DNA of 64,000 bases from an uncultured Planctomycetaceae bacterium (lineage in GTDB: Bacteria > Planctomycetota > Planctomycetia > Isosphaerales > Isosphaeraceae). Numbering within the stretch: the first letter of the stretch is position 1; every line of letters starts with the position of its first letter. Positions 17,776 through 64,000 of the stretch are shown piece after piece. A program made the translations under genes and the position numbers. Location: assembly GCA_963833985.1 (NCBI GenBank), contig CAWIAD010000002.1, positions 2,208,001 to 2,272,000 on the forward strand. The letters are read 5' to 3'. Under the pieces are notes generated by a model. It did not search any database. It saw only the letters and a program-made list of their open reading frames with translations, and had not been told where the DNA came from.

Positions 17776-20673
17776 ATGAGCCGGTCTCGGTATATCGTCG
17801 GCATTGATCTGGGGACGACCAACTGCGCGGTGGCGTATGTTGACACCAAGGGGCGCGAGCGGCCGGCGGCGGAGATCCGCATGTTCGACGTTCCGCAACT
17901 GGTGGCGGCGGGCGAATCGGCACCGCGGAGCATGCTGCCGTCATTCCTTTACCTGGCCGGCGGGCCGGAGCTGCCGCCGGGTGCAGCGCGGCTGCCCTGG
18001 GGCGACGGCGGCAACCGGATCGTCGGCGAGTTCGCGCGGATCCAGGGCGCCCGCGTGCCCGGCCGCCTGGTGCACAGCGCCAAGAGCTGGCTCTGCCATC
18101 CGGGCGTGGACCGCGAGGCCGACATCCTCCCCTGGGCGCGGGGCCGGAGATCCAGCGCGTCTCGCCCGTCGAGGCGTCGGCGGCCTACCTGCGGCACATC
18201 CGCGACGCCTGGAACCACAGCTTTGCCCTGGACGACCCGGCGCGCCGCCTGGAACAGCAAGAGGTCATCCTCACCGTGCCGGCCTCGTTCGATGAAGCGG
18301 TGCGCGAGCTGACCATCCTGGCCGCGAAGCAGGCCGACCTGAATTCGATCACGCTGCTGGAGGAGCCGCAGGCGGCGTTCTACTGCTGGATCGTCTCGCA
18401 CCAGGACCGCTGGCAGCGCGAGGTGCGGGCCGGCGAGCTCATCCTCGTCTGCGATATCGGCGGCGGCACCACCGACTTCAGCCTGATCACCGTGGTCGAG
18501 ACCCTCACCGGGCCGGGATTCCGCCGCGTGGCCGTGGGCGATCATCTCATGCTCGGCGGCGATAATATCGACCTGGCACTGGCGCACCAGGTGGAGACAA
18601 AACTGGGTGGCGTGCGGCTCGATACCGAGCAGTGGAGTGCCTTGCGCTTCGCCTGCCGGACGGCCAAGGAGAAGCTGCTCGTCGCGCAGCAGCCACTGCT
18701 CGAGCGCTGGCCCGTCACGATCGCCGGGCGCGGGTCGCGGATCATCGGCGGCAGCATCCAGTCGGAGCTGACGCGGCAGGACGTGCAGTCGATCGCGCTG
18801 GACGGGTTCTTCCCCCGGATTGGCCGCAGCGAGGAGCCGCAGCGCGGGGCGAAAACGGGGTTCCAGGAGTTTGGCCTCCCGTTCGTGGCCGACCCGGCCG
18901 TGCCCAGGCACCTGGCCGCCTTCCTGCGCCGGCACCGCTCCGAGGCGATCGGCCAGGGAGGCCACCAGAGCAACGACCGGCCGGCCCGGCCCGACGCGAT
19001 CCTCTTCAACGGCGGTGCACTCACGCCGGAGAGCGTGCGCAACCGGATCGTCGAGGTGGTGGCCTCGTGGTTCGGCGACGATCCGGGTCCGGCGTACTCC
19101 CCGCGCGTGCTCTCGAATTTTTCGCTGGACCTGGCCGTGGCCCAGGGCGCCGCGTACTACGGCGTGGTGCGCAGGGGCGGGGGAATCCGCATTGGGGGCG
19201 GTACGGCGCGTTCGTTCTACGTGGGGCTGGAGACGGGACAGGACGCCAGGCCATGGATGTGCGTGGTACCGCGTGATGCCCAGGAGGGCGACGAGACCAC
19301 GATCGACGGCCACGATTTCGACCTGCTCATGGGCCAGCCGGTGCTCTTCCCGCTGGCCAGCAGCTCGGTGCGGCCCGACGATCGGCCCGGGGACCTGGTC
19401 GCCGCCGACCCGGATTCCATTCGCGAGCTGCCTCCCTTGCAGAGCCTCATGAGGGTGGGCCGCAAGGCCAGGGCGGAGCGCGTGCCGGTGAGCCTGGTGG
19501 CACGAGTGACCGAGGTGGGTACCATCGAGCTCTGGTGCCAGTCGCGTACCGACACCCGCCGCTGGCGCTTGCAAATCCAGCTTCGAGGGCCGTCCGCCCA
19601 ACCCCAGCCGCGGACGACTGTCGCCGGAGTGGAGACCGACCGGGTGATCATCGAGCAATCCGAGCTCGATACGGCCATCGCCGCGATCCGCGATGCGTTC
19701 GCCGCACCGGCCTCGGCGGCTGGGTCCGAGACCGGTCCGGCCCGATTGATCAAGCGGCTCGAAGAGCTGATCGACGTTCCGCGCGACCAGTGGCCGCCCG
19801 CAGCCCTGCGCGCCTGGTGGGAGCCCGTGCGCGACGCGGCCGACCAGCGGCTGAAGAGCCCGCAGCACGAATCGCGCTGGTTCAACCTGGCCGGCTTCGC
19901 CTTGCGGCCCGGCCGCGGCTTCCCGCTTGACGAGATCCGCCTCAAGGCGCTCTGGCCGGTGTTTCACCAGGGAGTGAAGCACACCAGGGACGTGCAGTGC
20001 TGGGCCGAGTGGTGGATCCTCTGGCGGCGCGTGGCGGCCGGCCTGAGCCGCCAGCATCACGACGAGATCCATCGTCGCCTCGCCCCGTTCGTGGTGCCGG
20101 CGAAAGGCACCAGCCCGTCGAAGAAAGCCGGCCGGCCCAAGCCCGAGCCGCACGAGCTTGCAGAAATGTGGCGCTGCGCCGCCAGCCTGGAGCGGCTGGC
20201 GCCGGAGGTCAAGGAGGGATTGGGCAGCTCGCTGGCCAAGGAGCTGTCCCGGCCTTCCATTCCGAACTATCTGCTCTGGTGCCTGGGCCGGCTGGGCGCC
20301 CGCGTGCCGCTCTATGGACTGGCCAACACCGTGGTCCGACGCGAGGCCGCCGAGCGCTGGGTCGACGCGCTCCTCTCCCGCACGTTCGCCCCTGGCCGTG
20401 AGACCAGCGACGCGATCTTCGCCCTCTCTCAGCTTGCCCGCTCTTCCGGCGACCGTGCCCGCGATCTGCCGGAGGAGCTGCGCCAGCCGCGTCTTGAGCC
20501 GTCTCGAAGCACTGGGCGCCGACGAGTCCATTCTCCGCCCCGTCCGCGAATACCACGAGCTGGAAGCCGCACAGGAGAGCATCGCCCTGGGCGACGCGCT
20601 GCCGATCGGGCTGCGGCTGCGGGAGGAAAGTCCGCAACTCTCGCCGGCTGCGGATGCAGAGCCAGGAAAGTAA
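17776..20673 (+). CDS. Hsp70-family protein with extended C-terminal (DUF3731-like) domain; frameshifts ~18135 and ~20488
   Basis: VGIDLGTTNC, TVPASFD, LLEEPQAA, CDIGGGTTDFS, LGGDNID. Three ORF pieces join through single-base indels. Confidence 0.85.
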
Positions 20674-20830
20674 GTCTGGCCGACCGGAGCCAGGCTGCGT
20701 ACGCCCTTGACGTAGTGAGTCCCGACACCTGAAACTTGGGGCAACTTCTAATCTTGCCCGTGACCACTATCAACGCGTCGTGTCGATCTGGAGAAGAAGC
20801 AACTCTCTCACTCACCGGGACGAAACGGCC

Positions 20831-21455
20831 ATGACGACGATCGCACACCCCCCAGCCACCTTGATGTTGCCGCCGGGATTGACGCCTTACCGTCTCAGCG
20901 TCGACCAGTACGAGGCAATGGCTGAGGCCGGGATTTTGACCGAGCGCGACCGGATCGAGCTGATTGAAGGGCTGCTGGTAAGGAAAATGACCAGGAAACC
21001 CGACCACTCCACGGGCTCGGAGAAGTGCCGTCGAAGAATCGATCAGGCGCTGCCGCCCGGCTGGCACACGCGCCAGCAACAACCCATCCGCATCCCTCTG
21101 CGCAACAGTGAGCCTGAACCCGACATCGCCGTGGCTCGGGGCGACCTTGACGATTACGACACCGAGCACCCTGGTCCCGCCGACATCGCCCTCGTCGTCG
21201 AGGTCGCCCACTTCGAGCCTCCTTGCCGACCGGGCCCTCGCGAGAACCTACGGCGGAGGTGGCATTCCCACCTACTGGATCGTCAACCCGATCGACCGGC
21301 AGCTCGAGGTCTACGCGAACCCGACCGGCGGCGGCTATCCCGATCCCACCATGCTCGCCGAATCCGCGGCCGTCGAGCTGATCGTTGCCGGTGAGGTTGT
21401 CGCCCAGATCCCCGTTGTCGATCTCCTTCCTCGTAAGCCGAAGAAAGCCCTCTGA
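20831..21455 (+). CDS. Uma2 (DUF820) family endonuclease-fold protein; frameshift ~21210
   Basis: RLSVDQYEAM..GIL...RIELIEG, SEPEPDIAV, LVVEVA and, in the shifted frame, YGGGGIPTYWIVN. Confidence 0.85.
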
Positions 21456-21489
21456 GCATGGCCGGAAATTCACGCCGCTTGCTGTGATC

Positions 21490-21527
21490 GGCCTTGCGAT
21501 AGCAAATGGACAAAAAACCAACGCTCC
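21490..21527 (+). repeat. Left terminal inverted repeat (38 bp)
   Basis: GGCCTTGCGATAGCAAATGGACAAAAAACCAACGCTCC, preceded by TGATC. Confidence 0.85.
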
Positions 21528-21542
21528 GTCTATCTAAATGGC

Positions 21543-21916
21543 TCATAATTTGATGGAACGCAGCAGGTTCTTGCCGGCCCATCGATCGACTGGCAACTGA
21601 TGCCGGCCGTCCGGATTGATATGCTCGTACCTCGCCGGGGAGAGGTGCGCCAGGTCCTCGGGATCGATCCGCTGCCCCTTGGCCCTCGATCGGTCGATCA
21701 CCGCCCCCATGTAGACCGTGTTCCAGACGATCACGGCGTTGGTCACCAGGTTCAGGCAGCTCGCCTGGTTCGGCTGGCGTCATCGGTGCACCAATTGACC
21801 TGGGCCTTGTCCGCCTTCGTGAGGGTGTAGAAGGTGACCAGGTCCTCCCGGGGGACCTGCGGTGGATATCCAGCCAGCCGTTTCCGTTCGGCTTCGTTGA
21901 AGATCTGCCCCGGCAT
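21543..21916 (-). pseudogene. tnpA: Tn3-family transposase with large internal deletion
   Basis: N-terminus MPGQIFNEAERKRLAGYPPQVPREDLVTFYTLTKAD is joined out of frame (~21775) to the conserved C-terminus NQASCLNLVTNAVIVWNTVYM...LAHLSPARYEHINP. Confidence 0.85.
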
Positions 21917-21935
21917 GAGCTGGCACCCCCCGCCG

Positions 21936-22463
21936 TCACCACTTCCGCTCGAACTCCTCCTGGATGTGGGAGTCGGTGAAGTTGAGGTAGATGGCGGTCG
22001 TCTGGAGCCGGTCGTGGCCGAGGATCTTCTGGACGGTGGCCAGGCTTATGCCTTTCTCCAGGGCAGTCGCGGCGAAGGTGTGGCGGAGGACGTGCGGGGT
22101 CACGTCCTTGGCGAGGCCCGCCCGGTTGGCGACCTCCTTGATCAGCCCCTGGGCCCGCCGCGGCCGGACGGGGAAGTCCTTGCGAAGGGTGAAGTGATGC
22201 TCCAGCAGGCCGCGTAAGCGGCCGGACATGGGCACGACGCGGACCTTGGACTTCTTGCCGTAGGGGCCGCCCTTGCCCCGGACCCTGAGCTGACGTTGCT
22301 GCCAGAGGACATCCTTGGTGGTCAGGGCGCACAGCTCGTTAACGCGGAGGCCAGTGTCGAGCAGGGTCCAGACGATGAGGTGCTCGGTGGGCGTCTCGCA
22401 GGCGTTGGCAAGGATGTCGGCCTCCTCGGCGGTGAGGGGCTGGCGGACGTACTGGTAGGGCAT
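21936..22463 (-). CDS. Minimal tyrosine recombinase (catalytic domain only), probable cointegrate resolvase
   Basis: TGLRVNE (R), GKG (K), HVLRH, LGH and TTAIY catalytic residues; 175 aa. Confidence 0.92.
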   Translation of the reverse strand: MPYQYVRQPLTAEEADILANACETPTEHLIVWTLLDTGLRVNELCALTTKDVLWQQRQLRVRGKGGPYGKKSKVRVVPMSGRLRGLLEHHFTLRKDFPVRPRRAQGLIKEVANRAGLAKDVTPHVLRHTFAATALEKGISLATVQKILGHDRLQTTAIYLNFTDSHIQEEFERKW

Positions 22464-22490
22464 TGCTCCCCCCGAACCGTGCGCTTATAG

Positions 22491-22523
22491 TCACGGAAAG
22501 CGCAAAGATTGCGCCTTCCGCGA
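22491..22523. promoter_or_regulatory. Palindrome upstream of the recombinase, candidate binding/resolution site
   Basis: TCACGGAAAGCGCAA-aga-TTGCGCCTTCCGCGA (15-bp arms, 2 mismatches); ATTGCGCCTT recurs at ~22620. Confidence 0.5.
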
Positions 22524-22813
22524 TTCAGCCTACTCCGGCTGCATGGGGCGGAAAAGGGGCAGATGCCTGAGAAATTTTGGCTCCGGGCATATCGGGCTCG
22601 ATGGGGCACGCGGGGCCCGATTGCGCCTTTTTACGCGGAACGCGCGCACCGGGACCCTTCAGAAAGCCATCGCCTTCCTCGTTACTCTTGCGGTTGGGGA
22701 TAATGTCCGGTGGGTGGAACCATGGCGGCTTCGACCCACAGATCCTTGGGAAAAGCGGGACCGGGACCGGGTCGCCACCGCGGGGCTCCTGATTATATCG
22801 GGGACTGAGAGCT

Positions 22814-25800
22814 ATGGCGAATCGCTTCGATGCGTTCCTATCGCATGCCTCTTCCGATAAGCCCCTCATCGAGGAACTGGCCAGGCGCTGGAGCGCGAGA
22901 ATCTGAAACCATGGCTTGACAAGTGGAATCTGATTCCCGGCATGCCCTGGATGCCCGAGCTCGAGGCTGCCCTGAATTCCTGCGCCTCCGGCGTTGTGTT
23001 CATCGGGGCCGGGGGCTTCGGCCCCTGGCAGAACGAGGAGATGCGGACGGCCATCACCCGCCGCGTCGACGAGAGCCGGGCCGGGGCTCCCGGCGATGGC
23101 CGGCCGTTCCGCGTGATTCCGGTGCTCCTGCCTGGGGCCGGCCGGCCGGAGCGTAGCCAGCTGCCTGCATTCCTGGTCGCGACGACCTGGGTGGAGTTCC
23201 GCGACTCGCTCGACGACCCCGAGGCATTCCACCGGCTGGTTTGCGGGATCCGAGGCATCGAGCCGGCCGCCGGCCCCGGCGGGGCTGTGTTCGAGGGCCG
23301 GTGCCCTTATCGCGGCCTCGAGTTATTCGATGTGGAACACGCACCGCTCTTCTTCGGCCGAGAAGCGCTCACGGAGTGGTTGCTCGACAACCTCAAGCGC
23401 CAGCCGTCCGGCAGGGAGAGTCGGTTCCTGGCGATTGTTGGTGCCTCGGGAAGTGGCAAGTCGTCGGTGGTGCGCGCGGGATTGCTCGCTGCCCTCAAGA
23501 ACGGCAAGCTCGAAGGCAGTGAGGCGTGGCCGCGGGCGGTTTGCCGGCCAGGGGCGGAGCCGTTCTTCAACCTGGCGAAAGCACTCACCGGCTTGGCGCA
23601 GGAATCCGTGAGCGCCGTGGTCTTCGATCGGTTGCAGGGCCGCAAGGACGGTGAGCGGTCTCTGCACGTTGCCGCTGGCCTGGTCCTGGGCGAGCCTCCT
23701 CGCGGTGAGCGGCTGGTTTTGCTGGTAGATCAGTTCGAGGAGATCTTCACGCTTTGCAACGATGAAGCGGAACGCCGCGACTTCATCGCCAACCTCTTGC
23801 ATGCGGCGACGGTGGCCGGCGGTCGCGCCATCGTCGTCGTGACGATGCGGGCCGACTTCTACCATCGCTGTGCCGTTCACAACGATCTGGCCGCCGCTCT
23901 GTCGGATCATCAGGTACTGATCGGACCGATGACCGACGACGAGCTGCGGCGGGCCATCGAGCGGCCTGCGCGGCTGGCCGGCCTGGAACCGGAGGCGGGA
24001 CTCGTCGAACTGCTGCTGGATGACATCCGGGGCCGTGTCGGGGCCTTGCCGCTGCTGCAGTTCGCGCTTCAAGAGGTGTGGCGTCGTCGTGAAGATTATC
24101 GTCTGACCGTCCATACTTATCGTGAGATTGGTCAGCTCGAAGGAGCGCTTCAGCGCAAGGCAGACGCGGTTTACGGCAGGTTCACGCCTGAGCAGCAAGA
24201 ACTTTGCCGTCGTGTCTTCTTGAGGTTGGTTCATCCGGGCGAGGGGAGCGAGGACACGCGCCGGCGGGCCACGCTGCGCGAACTCTTGCCGAGCGACCCC
24301 GCGCAGGCCGCGGCGGTGCAGTCGATCATCGACCGGCTGGCCGATCCGGAATCGCGGCTCTTGACGACCGAGCGGCAAAAGACGGCCGCGGGCGAGGCAA
24401 CGGCCGAGGTCGCCCACGAAGCCTTGATTCGCGGCTGGCCGTTGCTGCGGAAGTGGATCGAGGCCGACCGCGACGGGTTGAAGCTCCAGCGGCGGCTGAC
24501 CGAGGCCGCGACGGGTTGGTTGTTGCACGATCGGGAGAGCAGCTTCCTGTACACCGGCATCCCGCTGGCACAGGCGCGAGAGTGGTTGAAGACGAACCCC
24601 GATGCGCTCAACACGGTGGAGACGCAGTTCCTCAATGCGAGCATGAGGCGGCGGCGCAGGGCCAAGGTCGCGCGACTCGGGGCCATCGCCGCGATCGTCG
24701 GCCTCGCTTTCCTGGGCTGGGAGGGGCTGCGCCTGCAACAACAGGCCCAGTTCGCCTCTTTATCGAAGCTGACCAACGACGACGTGCAAGAAGCCCGAAA
24801 ACTCTCACTCCAGTCCAAGTGGGGCGAGGCGATCACTGTGCTGGAGGGGGCCGAGAAACGGCTCGGGATTGGCGGCAGGTACGAGGAACTGCGTTCCCAG
24901 GTGGAACGTCCTCTGAGTACGTACAAGGCGAAGCAACAGGAGCATGACTCGGAGGTGCGCGACAAGACAATGATCGCGGCCCTCGAAGAGGCGCACACGT
25001 TGCTTGCTGAGAATACAAGATCAGGCGGTTTGCCGTCAGAACCCGATCTCAAGGTCTTGATTCCCGGCTATCGACAGGCACTTCGCGATGGAGGGATCGA
25101 CATTGACAACCTTCCTGACGAACGGGTCATCGAGTTGATCGGGGCCAAGCCGCCGCGGGCCCGTGAGATCGTGGCCGCGGCGCTCGACGATTGGGCCAGG
25201 GCCCTCGATGGAGCAGAGCAAGAGCGCTTTCGCCGGATTGCCCGAACCTCGGACCCCGATCCGTACCGCAGCGCCATCCGCGACGCTTGCCTGAGCCACA
25301 ATCTTGCCGCCCTGAAGAAGCTGGCAAACGATCCCGAGTTAACCAAGCAGCCCGCGTTCACGCTCAATCGGTTGTGTGAATCGCTGTTTGAAGAAGGCGG
25401 CGACAAGGAGTCGATACCGTTACTGCGCCGGGCCCAGGTCCTTCACCCCCGCGACTTCTGGATCACGGCAAGCCTCGCCGCGCGCCTATGCTGGGTCTCT
25501 CCCCCCCAGCCAAACGACGCCATTCGCTTTGCAACGGCCGCCGTCGCGCTCCGACCTGAGATTCCCAGCGTTCATCGCCGCCTGGCGGTCGCTCTCATCA
25601 GGTGTGGCCGCATCAACGACGCGCGCATTGCGCTCCAGGAAGCCTTTCGGCTGAATCCCAAAGACCCCTTTGCCTACAGCACGCAGGGTTGGATCTGGGC
25701 GGCGGAAAAGAATTTCGAGAAGGCCCTCGCCAACTATGACAAGGCCATAGCCCTCAACCCGAGCTACGGACTCTACAAGAGCCGCGGCGATACGTGGATT

Positions 25801-27036
25801 GACGCGGGTGATTACGGTAGGGGGCTCGCGGACTTCGACACAGCGCTCCGCATCAATCCCCAGGATGGAGGTTCGCATATGGGGCGCGGTCGGGCTCTAG
25901 GGTTCGCAAAACGATTTCCTGAGGCAATCAAGGCGTATGACGAGGCGATCAAGCTCAGCCCCCGAGACCCGTTTGCCTACCACAACCGCGGTCTGGCGCA
26001 CCTGAACCTGGGGGAAGAGCACAACGATAGGGCCGTTGCCGATTTCACCAAGGCACTGGAACTGTTTCCGCAATTTGGCGATCCCTACGCGCATCGTGCG
26101 GAAATATGGCTACGACACCGAGACGAAAAGAGCGCGCTAGACGACTTCGACCGTGCCATCAAGTATGGGGTCAGCTACGAGTTTGCTTACAACCGACGCG
26201 GGTCGATTCGGCACCGGAACGGCTACCTCCAGGGTGCGATCGCGGATTACACCAAGGCAATCGAGATCAACCCACGATCTGCATCCGCGTACCATGATCG
26301 TGGTCGGGCCTGGACGGAAATCGGCGATTTTGACAAGGCCATGAAAGACTACGACAAGGCCATCGAACTGAGTGGAACGTTCGCCACTGCATGGGGCAAT
26401 CGAGGTCGAGTGAAGAGATTGAAGGGAGATTACGCCGGCGCTCTCGCTGACTTCAACGAGGCGATCCGGCTCAATCCTCGCTACGCCTGGGCTTTCGCGG
26501 GTCGCGCGGCGGTATGGATCAAGAAAAAGGAATTTGACAAGGCCATCAACGATTACGACCAGGCAATCCGGCTCGACCCGAGTCGAGAGCTCGCCTGGGC
26601 TCACAGCGAACGAGGGTACGCGCGAAATTCCCTGCGTCAGTACGACAAGGCGTTCGCCGATTATGACGAAGCGATTCGACTCAACGATAAACTGGCCGAT
26701 CCCTACAACCGACGCGCCTGGATCCGGGCCACTTGCCCGGACTCGAAATGCCGTGATGGCAAGAAGGCCGTCGAGTCAGCCACCCGCGCCTGTGAGCTGA
26801 CGGCGTGGAAGAACGCCGAGTTCCTCACCACGCTCGCCGCGGCCTGCGCAGAGGCCGGAGACTTCGCCGGCGCGATGAAGTGGGAAGAGAAGGCCATCGG
26901 GCTGCCCGCGAAAGGCGAGCCCCGGCGCACGACCTTCGATTCCCGCATGGCGCTCTTCGAGGCCAAGAAACCATATCGCGAAGAGCCGGACGTCGGTAAT
27001 TCCCGAGGAAACGCAATCCAGGCTGCGCGGCCGTGA
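22814..27036 (+). CDS. TIR domain + nSTAND1-type NTPase + TM helix + multi-TPR protein (1-bp frameshift ~22887)
   Basis: MANRFDAFLSHASSDK..WLDKWNLIPG..GPWQNEE (TIR); CPYRGL..FFGRE, GASGSGKSS, LLVDQFEEIF, ALPLLQFAL, EVAHEAL (STAND); LGAIAAIVGLAFLGW (TM); about ten TPRs. Confidence 0.88.
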
Positions 27037-27145
27037 TTGCCCACGACGACGGGTCGTCCGGAATCCCCTCGACGCGATGTCAACCCAAAATCAAGAAGTG
27101 CGTCTTTCTGGGCCCGAAGCGCACACCTGAACCGGCGCTCACTAC

Positions 27146-27182
27146 CGAGCGTCGGTTTTTGTCCGTTTACTATCCCTAGCCC
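27146..27182 (-). repeat. Right terminal inverted repeat (37 bp)
   Basis: Reverse complement GGGCTAGGGATAGTAAACGGACAAAAACCGACGCTCG; followed on the + strand by TGATC. Confidence 0.85.
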
Positions 27183-27223
27183 TGATCGGCCGGCTGTGCC
27201 GAGGCGCATTGCCTCGTGATCGA

Positions 27224-63853: not shown

Positions 63854-64000
63854 AGAATTGGCTTGGTATTCTGTTACCTCGGAATCGTTTGGGCGCGCGT
63901 CACGGCCTGATGAATGACCAGGGGATGAGTGGATCGTCACCACTTCCGTTCAAACTCTTGATGGATGTGCAGATCCGCGATTGTTGAGATGGATCGCCGC

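Follow-up and report, generated by a model that had tools for sequence, protein, structure and literature searches.

A Tn3-family transposon of an uncultured planctomycete whose catalytic-domain-only tyrosine recombinase may load cargo at the resolution site

Introduction

The stretch of 64,000 nucleotides analysed here (hereafter the window; contig CAWIAD010000002.1 of assembly GCA_963833985.1, positions 2,208,001 to 2,272,000) derives from an uncultured Planctomycetaceae bacterium of the Isosphaeraceae and harbours at positions 21485..27187 a Tn3-family element that carries a single gene of the TIR-STAND receptor type. The locus raises the question of how such an element acquires its cargo, and whether it is a dedicated carrier of immune receptors as an earlier note on this DNA had proposed. 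A comparison with related loci (designated L), which belong to the Planctomycetota and mostly to the Isosphaeraceae, revealed a 25-bp site that is present twice in direct orientation, once at either border of the cargo. The tyrosine recombinase of the element probably resolves transposition cointegrates at the copy next to its own gene, site I, and also recombines this site with partner sites, by which cargo would be loaded.

Recombination sites at the borders of the cargo

The following features of the window concern the recombinase and the cargo borders:

21936..22463, minus strand: tyrosine recombinase of 175 amino acids (aa), catalytic domain only (PF00589; R40, H124, R127, H150 and Y159 present)
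22480..22534, minus strand: res subsites III (22480-22504) and II (22510-22534), kept upstream of the recombinase in relatives; predicted accessory/operator sites
22622..22646, minus strand: res site I (inner site), a 25-bp imperfect palindrome of 26.9 bits; predicted crossover site
22647..27098, no strand: cargo module between the two sites, 4,452 bp, absent from the empty mini-element L018
27099..27123, minus strand: outer site, a direct copy of site I, 59 nt inside the repeat tip; weak score of 11.6 bits

The region upstream of the recombinase is conserved over ~185 bp and comprises two palindromic subsites by the start codon, which presumably serve as accessory or operator sites, followed by a spacer and site I. 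Site I of the window is the best match in the genome to the site profile, for which shuffled DNA gave no match of 12 bits. In 82 of 101 sequences (the 100 fetched loci and the window, some of them too short or duplicates) the site is located ~185 bp upstream of the recombinase, represented by 52 distinct sites. It was also detected beside the recombinase on plasmids of Megaira (Rickettsiales) and Cardinium (Bacteroidota) and in one of six loci on viral contigs, none of these six having a second site. Similarity between loci stops at the cargo-side edge of site I.

The outer site of the window scores weakly, yet it has the same offset and context as in the relatives. Among 45 repeat matches of further loci, 20 show a site of at least 18 bits at the 59-nt offset, although these loci were fetched with a query containing the site and some of the matches represent the opposite end. 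The earlier note had described the repeats, the transposase remnant, the recombinase and the cargo gene, and had missed the two recombination-type sites bracketing the cargo. A 15-bit site-like match inside the cargo gene (window 23343) was treated as chance, and longer site arms of 12 bp were tried and found unsupported.

Variation of the cargo across related loci

In many loci a direct second site follows 1-9 kb farther out, with unrelated cargo between the two copies, and the 78 loci with enough flank show 51 different sequences directly outside site I. In eight elements with the end type of the window, pairwise identity at the outer site falls from 0.75 outside to 0.31 at positions 13-16 and 0.26 just inside. 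At the inner site the element-side arm reaches 0.94 and the cargo side 0.25. Furthermore, L042, L120 and L132 share an identical sequence as far as the middle of a site, beyond which three unrelated cargoes follow, namely a HEAT-repeat pair, TIR plus NACHT genes and SIR2-AAA-FGE genes. In the empty forms the outer end is joined directly to res via one site; these are the 434-bp minis L018 and L166 as well as L045 and L046, which have another end type and of which L046 retains a near-full, frameshifted tnpA. Two modules in tandem were found in L120 and in the L081 group.

An alternative in which the outer site belongs to the transposon end as a fixed binding site, comparable to the DR2 copies near the ends of Tn5401 mentioned in the consulted part of PMC7157771, is unlikely; cargo would then have arrived through ordinary insertion or through homologous exchange, and deletions between the two similar sites would have produced the empty forms. 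The constant distance of 59 nt between outer site and tip, and the weak score of the outer site in the window, would be compatible with such a fixed site. However, conservation extends only halfway into the outer site, backbones that are 96-98% identical still differ in its inner arm according to their cargo, and sites are also located between the tandem modules of L120 and the L081 group, far from the ends.

The position of a crossover may be read from the spacers of 22 clean site pairs; two further pairs, L037 (out of register) and L120b (internal site), were left out. The outer spacer begins with T in 20 of these pairs and with G in the other two, the window included, and the inner spacer begins with C in 21. 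Since C is also found in all four empty forms, the crossover is placed between positions 9 and 10. Positions 13-16 differ between the partner sites, and the arms on the donor side agree well with the consensus, at a pairwise identity of 0.66 and 0.80. The one-sided distribution of T and C suggests either a fixed strand order or a selection against matched outer sites.

The cargoes of other loci include DabA with carbonic anhydrases, Ser/Thr kinase-TPR or -WD40 proteins, an acyltransferase, an esterase, hydrolases, a pair of ECF sigma genes, oxidoreductases, nSTAND7, HNH and histidine kinase genes, and many open reading frames (ORFs) without a family. The genes face both directions and keep their leaders.

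Several observations on individual loci are added here. L038 carries as its cargo (9.2 kb) a cluster for inorganic carbon transport of the DabA type that includes two carbonic anhydrases, and this sister transposon is otherwise near-intact. On a Megaira plasmid, the gene that comes first on the outer side of site I of this recombinase family encodes a TIR domain (L213:4537-5505). In related genera, a repeat of up to ~450 bp (L169, L172, L176-L182 and L186) occurs in several copies per genome; it contains a decayed end and outer site of the family as well as an invariant tail of 75 bp. This tail is also located behind the outer site of L053, whose backbone is a different one. The pair L051/L076 was considered as a shuffled cassette and rejected, the break falling just outside the site.

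A model of cargo loading and its alternatives

Based on these borders, we propose two reactions of the recombinase. At site I it would resolve transposition cointegrates, assisted by subsites II and III in the way in which DR1-DR2 assist TnpI (PMC2847244). Occasionally it would also recombine site I with a partner site on a different DNA, the crossover falling between positions 9 and 10. Site I would thereby be divided into two hybrids, an outer and an inner one, that enclose the incoming DNA, and later modules would enter at the inner site and push the older ones outward. The outer hybrid would be a poor partner due to its mismatched spacer and its lack of accessory sites, and the cargo would thus be protected and retained. 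The consulted text of PMC2847244 reports that TnpI core sites recombine between molecules when accessory motifs are absent, which makes loading plausible as a side reaction.

Several points weigh against this proposal. No excised circle was seen. The agreement between inner and outer spacers averages only 3.4 of 7 bases, although a test of homology in the spacer is normal for tyrosine recombinases, as stated in the consulted part of PMC2847244. Many recombinase loci have no second site within the available flank, and the activity of a recombinase without a core-binding domain is assumed from its conservation. The sample itself has to be taken into account, since a single bacterial family contributes most of the loci, which are not independent, and some of the outer ends were fetched with a query containing the site. 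Finally, an all-against-all comparison did not find an identical module in two different backbones.

This last finding, together with the visibility of only one arm per donor site, agrees with the main rival explanation, which shares the crossover chemistry, overlaps with the loading proposed here and requires no pool of cassettes. According to this explanation the partner of site I is a chromosomal site that resembles it by chance, a second event at another look-alike excises the element together with the host genes between, and the cargo rarely moves again. We regard such one-off capture as conceivable though not as the expected course. The cargoes do resemble genes or operons of an ordinary host (Ser/Thr kinase-TPR, ECF sigma pairs, DabA with carbonic anhydrase, hydrolases), they face either direction and retain their leaders, and most of the 24 site matches of at least 15 bits in the genome are unconnected with elements. 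However, the strong look-alike sites are hundreds of kb apart, the donor-side arms show the good fit given above, T is nearly constant at position 10, and genes often begin or end 6-120 bp from the sites according to a list made by hand that includes partly unverified ORFs.

The recombinase

The earlier note had recorded an intact tyrosine recombinase. The gene is indeed intact and matches PF00589, with the correction that its product consists of the catalytic domain only. Its catalytic residues are conserved in an alignment of 60 sequences. The alignment to archaeal XerA begins at residue 103 of the 292 residues of XerA, and the predicted fold (60 sequences; predicted local distance difference test, pLDDT, of 80) covers a catalytic domain only and matches Xer catalytic domains with a template modelling (TM) score of 0.76, from which we conclude that the N-terminal core-binding domain is lacking. 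This fold replaced a poor one obtained from three sequences (pLDDT 49.5). The accessible part of PMC8138268 counts the core-binding domain as standard in the classification of tyrosine recombinases.

Among 3,134 candidates of 96-307 aa, 2,525 relatives were detected at E 1e-20, and 91 of the best 120 have a length of exactly 175 aa, while a weak search of longer proteins gave a single relative at E 1e-30. The recombinase is present in 18 of 121 genomes of the order and also on five plasmids of distant phyla. Literature searches, which had limited reach into subscription papers, found no description of this recombinase family or of its sites.

The recombinase gene is also represented by a decayed 3' fragment, with 75% DNA identity, at 63935-64000 of the window; this fragment extends 89 bases beyond the window end and adjoins a small gene pair. 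This fragment, 42 kb away, represents a second, older visit of the element family.

Ends, transposase and Tn3 membership

The remaining parts of the transposon are as follows:

21485..21489, no strand: left copy of the target duplication TGATC (letters and chance calculation)
21490..21527, plus strand: terminal inverted repeat, tnpA side (81% match to the end of L017)
21543..21770, minus strand: tnpA 3' remnant, last ~75 codons (PF01526 positions 342-388; alignment to L017)
21771..21916, minus strand: tnpA 5' remnant, first ~48 codons; deletion joint 21771/21770, out of frame
27146..27182, minus strand: terminal inverted repeat, cargo side (repeat comparison with relatives)
27183..27187, no strand: right copy of the target duplication TGATC (letters)

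Each TGATC copy is flush with a repeat tip, and the chance of two identical 5-mers at the same distance within the window is 0.2%. The terminal repeats, of the ~38-bp size typical of the Tn3 family, agree at 22 of 27 bases without a gap and at 30 of 37 with one gap; their tips are GGCC and GGGC, while several sister elements have GGGG. By themselves the repeats of the window are only one of 272 inverted pairs in 7.7 kb, and a self-comparison of the related loci for inverted repeats returned many GC-rich chance pairs. We nevertheless hold the ends to be proven, because the same ends delimit five sisters with 5-bp duplications of their own: L038 (GGATC), L060 (GCCTC), L041 (GAGTC), L154 (TATCC) and L161 (AACTC). 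No clean 5-bp duplication was found in four other sisters (L018, L046, L146 and L166). All six duplications including TGATC have the form xxxTC or a similar one beside an end, which hints at a target preference of the element family.

Compared with the 980-aa TnpA of L017, 2,569 bp of tnpA are missing at the joint 21771/21770. The remnants match PF01526 and are 65% identical to L017 TnpA, which itself passes NF033527 with 995 bits against a cut-off of 500. L017 is a sister from the same genus with the same end, a full TnpA and a recombinase that is 88% identical. By transposase, repeats and duplication the element is a member of the Tn3 family, and its layout points to replicative transposition with cointegrate resolution. 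In the assembly of the window (two contigs, 10.2 Mb, 96% complete) a full cognate tnpA is absent, only fragments being present, the longest of them 26% identical, and a second copy of the element was not found besides fragments and two solo ends. A helper gene may nevertheless lie on the DNA that the assembly lacks. The whole element would move only if a cognate transposase were supplied in trans.

The earlier note thus correctly delimited a non-autonomous Tn3-family element with a tyrosine resolvase at 21485..27187, bounded by imperfect repeats and TGATC on both sides and with a transposase reduced to its two termini (21916-21771 and 21770-21543, out of frame). The sisters with full tnpA or other cargo for which it proposed to search exist as well, in L017 and in the relatives with unrelated cargo, respectively.

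As for the two solo ends (G000:C1:2758856 and G000:C2:3816207), one is accompanied by a 3' remnant of tnpA that a short palindromic repeat interrupts, and the other is located upstream of an ECF sigma-like gene. The left ends of L041, L040 and L050 carry a decayed end of the window type nested just inside a different Tn3-type end, which indicates that at least two lineages of transposase have been combined with the recombinase-res module. The TnpA of L046 is 35-45% identical to that of L017.

Regarding an empty form of the insertion site, the Hsp70-like and hydrolase genes are adjacent in G009 (L019) with neither the Uma2 gene nor the element and with a diverged spacer between them, and L020 and L021 have a different neighbour. 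In the window the Hsp70-like gene (17776-20732) and the Uma2 gene (20831-21455) are each broken by frameshifts.

The cargo gene and the question of a receptor vehicle

The cargo module contains one gene:

22814..27036, plus strand: TIR - nSTAND1 NTPase - predicted membrane helix - helical linker - TPR gene, ~1,407 aa when read through

The earlier note had described it as one 4.2-kb NLR-like TIR-STAND gene. This architecture stands, to which a frameshift in the assembly and a predicted membrane helix have to be added. The protein matches nSTAND1 with 427 bits and has TPR repeats, and TIR_2, weak on the cut ORF, is listed for the full orthologues; it thus shows the layout of STAND receptors with an N-terminal effector, an NTPase and C-terminal repeats. 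P-loop and Walker B are intact, and the glutamate expected of a TIR domain that cleaves NAD is present. A hydrophobic stretch follows an arginine run at residues 617-635 of the read-through (mean hydropathy 1.73). The protein is predicted to be a membrane-anchored TIR-STAND receptor, and its domains suggest a role in defence.

The frameshift near 22887 consists of one base fewer than in the homologues. Two of four essential genes checked, gyrA and valS, are also split in the assembly, and an intact orthologue exists (P0122, 79% identity), so that an assembly error is the likelier cause. Taking furthermore into account the split Hsp70-like and Uma2 genes, the assembly has many 1-bp errors.

The gene as such is ordinary and belongs to a known architecture. 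Among 7,996 candidates, 492 relatives were detected at E 1e-100, with TPR, WD40, FGE, kinase or LRR ends. The consulted section of PMC10907252 describes TIR-nSTAND1 receptor-like proteins as putative conflict systems; the receptors of this type in multicellular bacteria have the same N-terminal TIR, nSTAND1 NTPase and C-terminal repeat sensor, with no difference of substance.

The proposal of the earlier note that the element is a vehicle spreading an immune receptor among planctomycetes finds little support, as the receptor is one of many unrelated cargoes, and a dedicated vehicle for TIR-STAND immune receptors appears quite improbable. In its favour, the closest homologue in the genomes (L205, 76% over the TIR-STAND part) sits inside an outer site and repeat of the family, ~1.3 kb from the site with a WD40 end and a second gene between, and other modules carry TIR plus NACHT, SIR2 plus AAA, nSTAND7 or HNH genes. 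However, L205 is the only one of the 12 homologue loci scanned (L022, L023, L030, L031 and L205-L212) with an outer end of the family, and neither the inner site nor the recombinase was found there; at the other 11 loci neither a family end nor the recombinase was found. Furthermore, the cargo protein of the window gave no PADLOC match at E 1e-5, and many cargoes are metabolic or regulatory. Since the cargo ranges from kinases, CO2 uptake and hydrolases to some defence-like genes, the element family is probably not dedicated to immune receptors.

Comparison with known systems

TnpI, the resolvase of Tn4430, has a core-binding domain. The window recombinase with its 175 aa lacks it, and the likeness is one of layout and not of protein. 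As in the TnpI-IRS systems of Tn4430 and Tn5401, a tyrosine resolvase is colinear with tnpA and preceded by a recombination region in which the core site is farthest from the gene and the accessory sites are nearer, as far as the consulted parts of PMC7157771 and PMC2847244 describe them. The accessory sites of the window differ from DR1/DR2, being two palindromes ~90 bp from the core and thus only an analogous motif. In addition, Tn4430 has no passenger genes, whereas the family of the window has a second core copy that brackets variable cargo. The family thus resembles the TnpI system in its presumed mode of action and departs from it in protein and sites.

The closest published idea, judged from its description in a review, is Tn4655 of plasmid NAH7, a Tn3-type transposon whose tyrosine recombinase is said to excise and integrate a catabolic cluster (PMC13343209). 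According to that description alone it differs in concerning one cluster and not a family of small modules (PMC13343209).

Integrons share the separation of tandem modules by sites and the differing spacers of partner sites, and presumably also the appearance of new modules at a recombinase-adjacent site. An entry at the recombinase-proximal site would fit L042, L120 and L132, where the order of events is deduced from the comparison. However, the recombinase of the window is not IntI (78.5 bits for TIGR02249 against a cut-off of 265), its sites are 25-bp palindromes and not attC hairpins, and the genes of the family face both ways, keep their leaders and form arrays of one or two modules among those seen. 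The element is not an integron.

Two further systems are looser analogues. Mobile insertion cassettes of Bacillus and Xanthomonas have, in the consulted part of PMC4337579, passengers between Tn3-type repeats with 5-bp duplications and are moved in trans, but the element of the window retains res and the recombinase, and its cargo has borders of its own that are defined by sites. The XerC-like/dif-like pair of Tn6022 is likewise a transposon-borne tyrosine recombinase with a site, proposed to diversify elements; it differs, as portrayed in the accessible text of PMC11014353, in belonging to a Tn7-like transposon and in comprising a full-size XerC-like protein that requires the host XerD and a dif-like site.

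Implications

The acquisition of passengers by Tn3-family elements is called largely open in the consulted part of PMC7157771, where this is said of toxin-antitoxin pairs next to res site I. In the family described here the point of cargo acquisition is visible to the base, empty, single and tandem forms are known, and the list of parts is small, one protein of 175 aa and one 25-bp site. A recombinase that is minimal by nature and copes with mismatched spacers would also be attractive as a tool. We tentatively consider a further-reaching version of the proposal, to which we assign less than even chances: a widespread Tn3-type family may use a minimal, catalytic-domain-only recombinase both as resolvase and as cassette integrase, with circulating circles that carry a TGC-type site entering the CGC-type site I by a fixed strand order without spacer homology and forming small arrays. 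If this version is true, gene cassettes would have a third route in addition to integrons and pdif modules, and receptors, kinases and defence genes would be loaded by it in planctomycetes.

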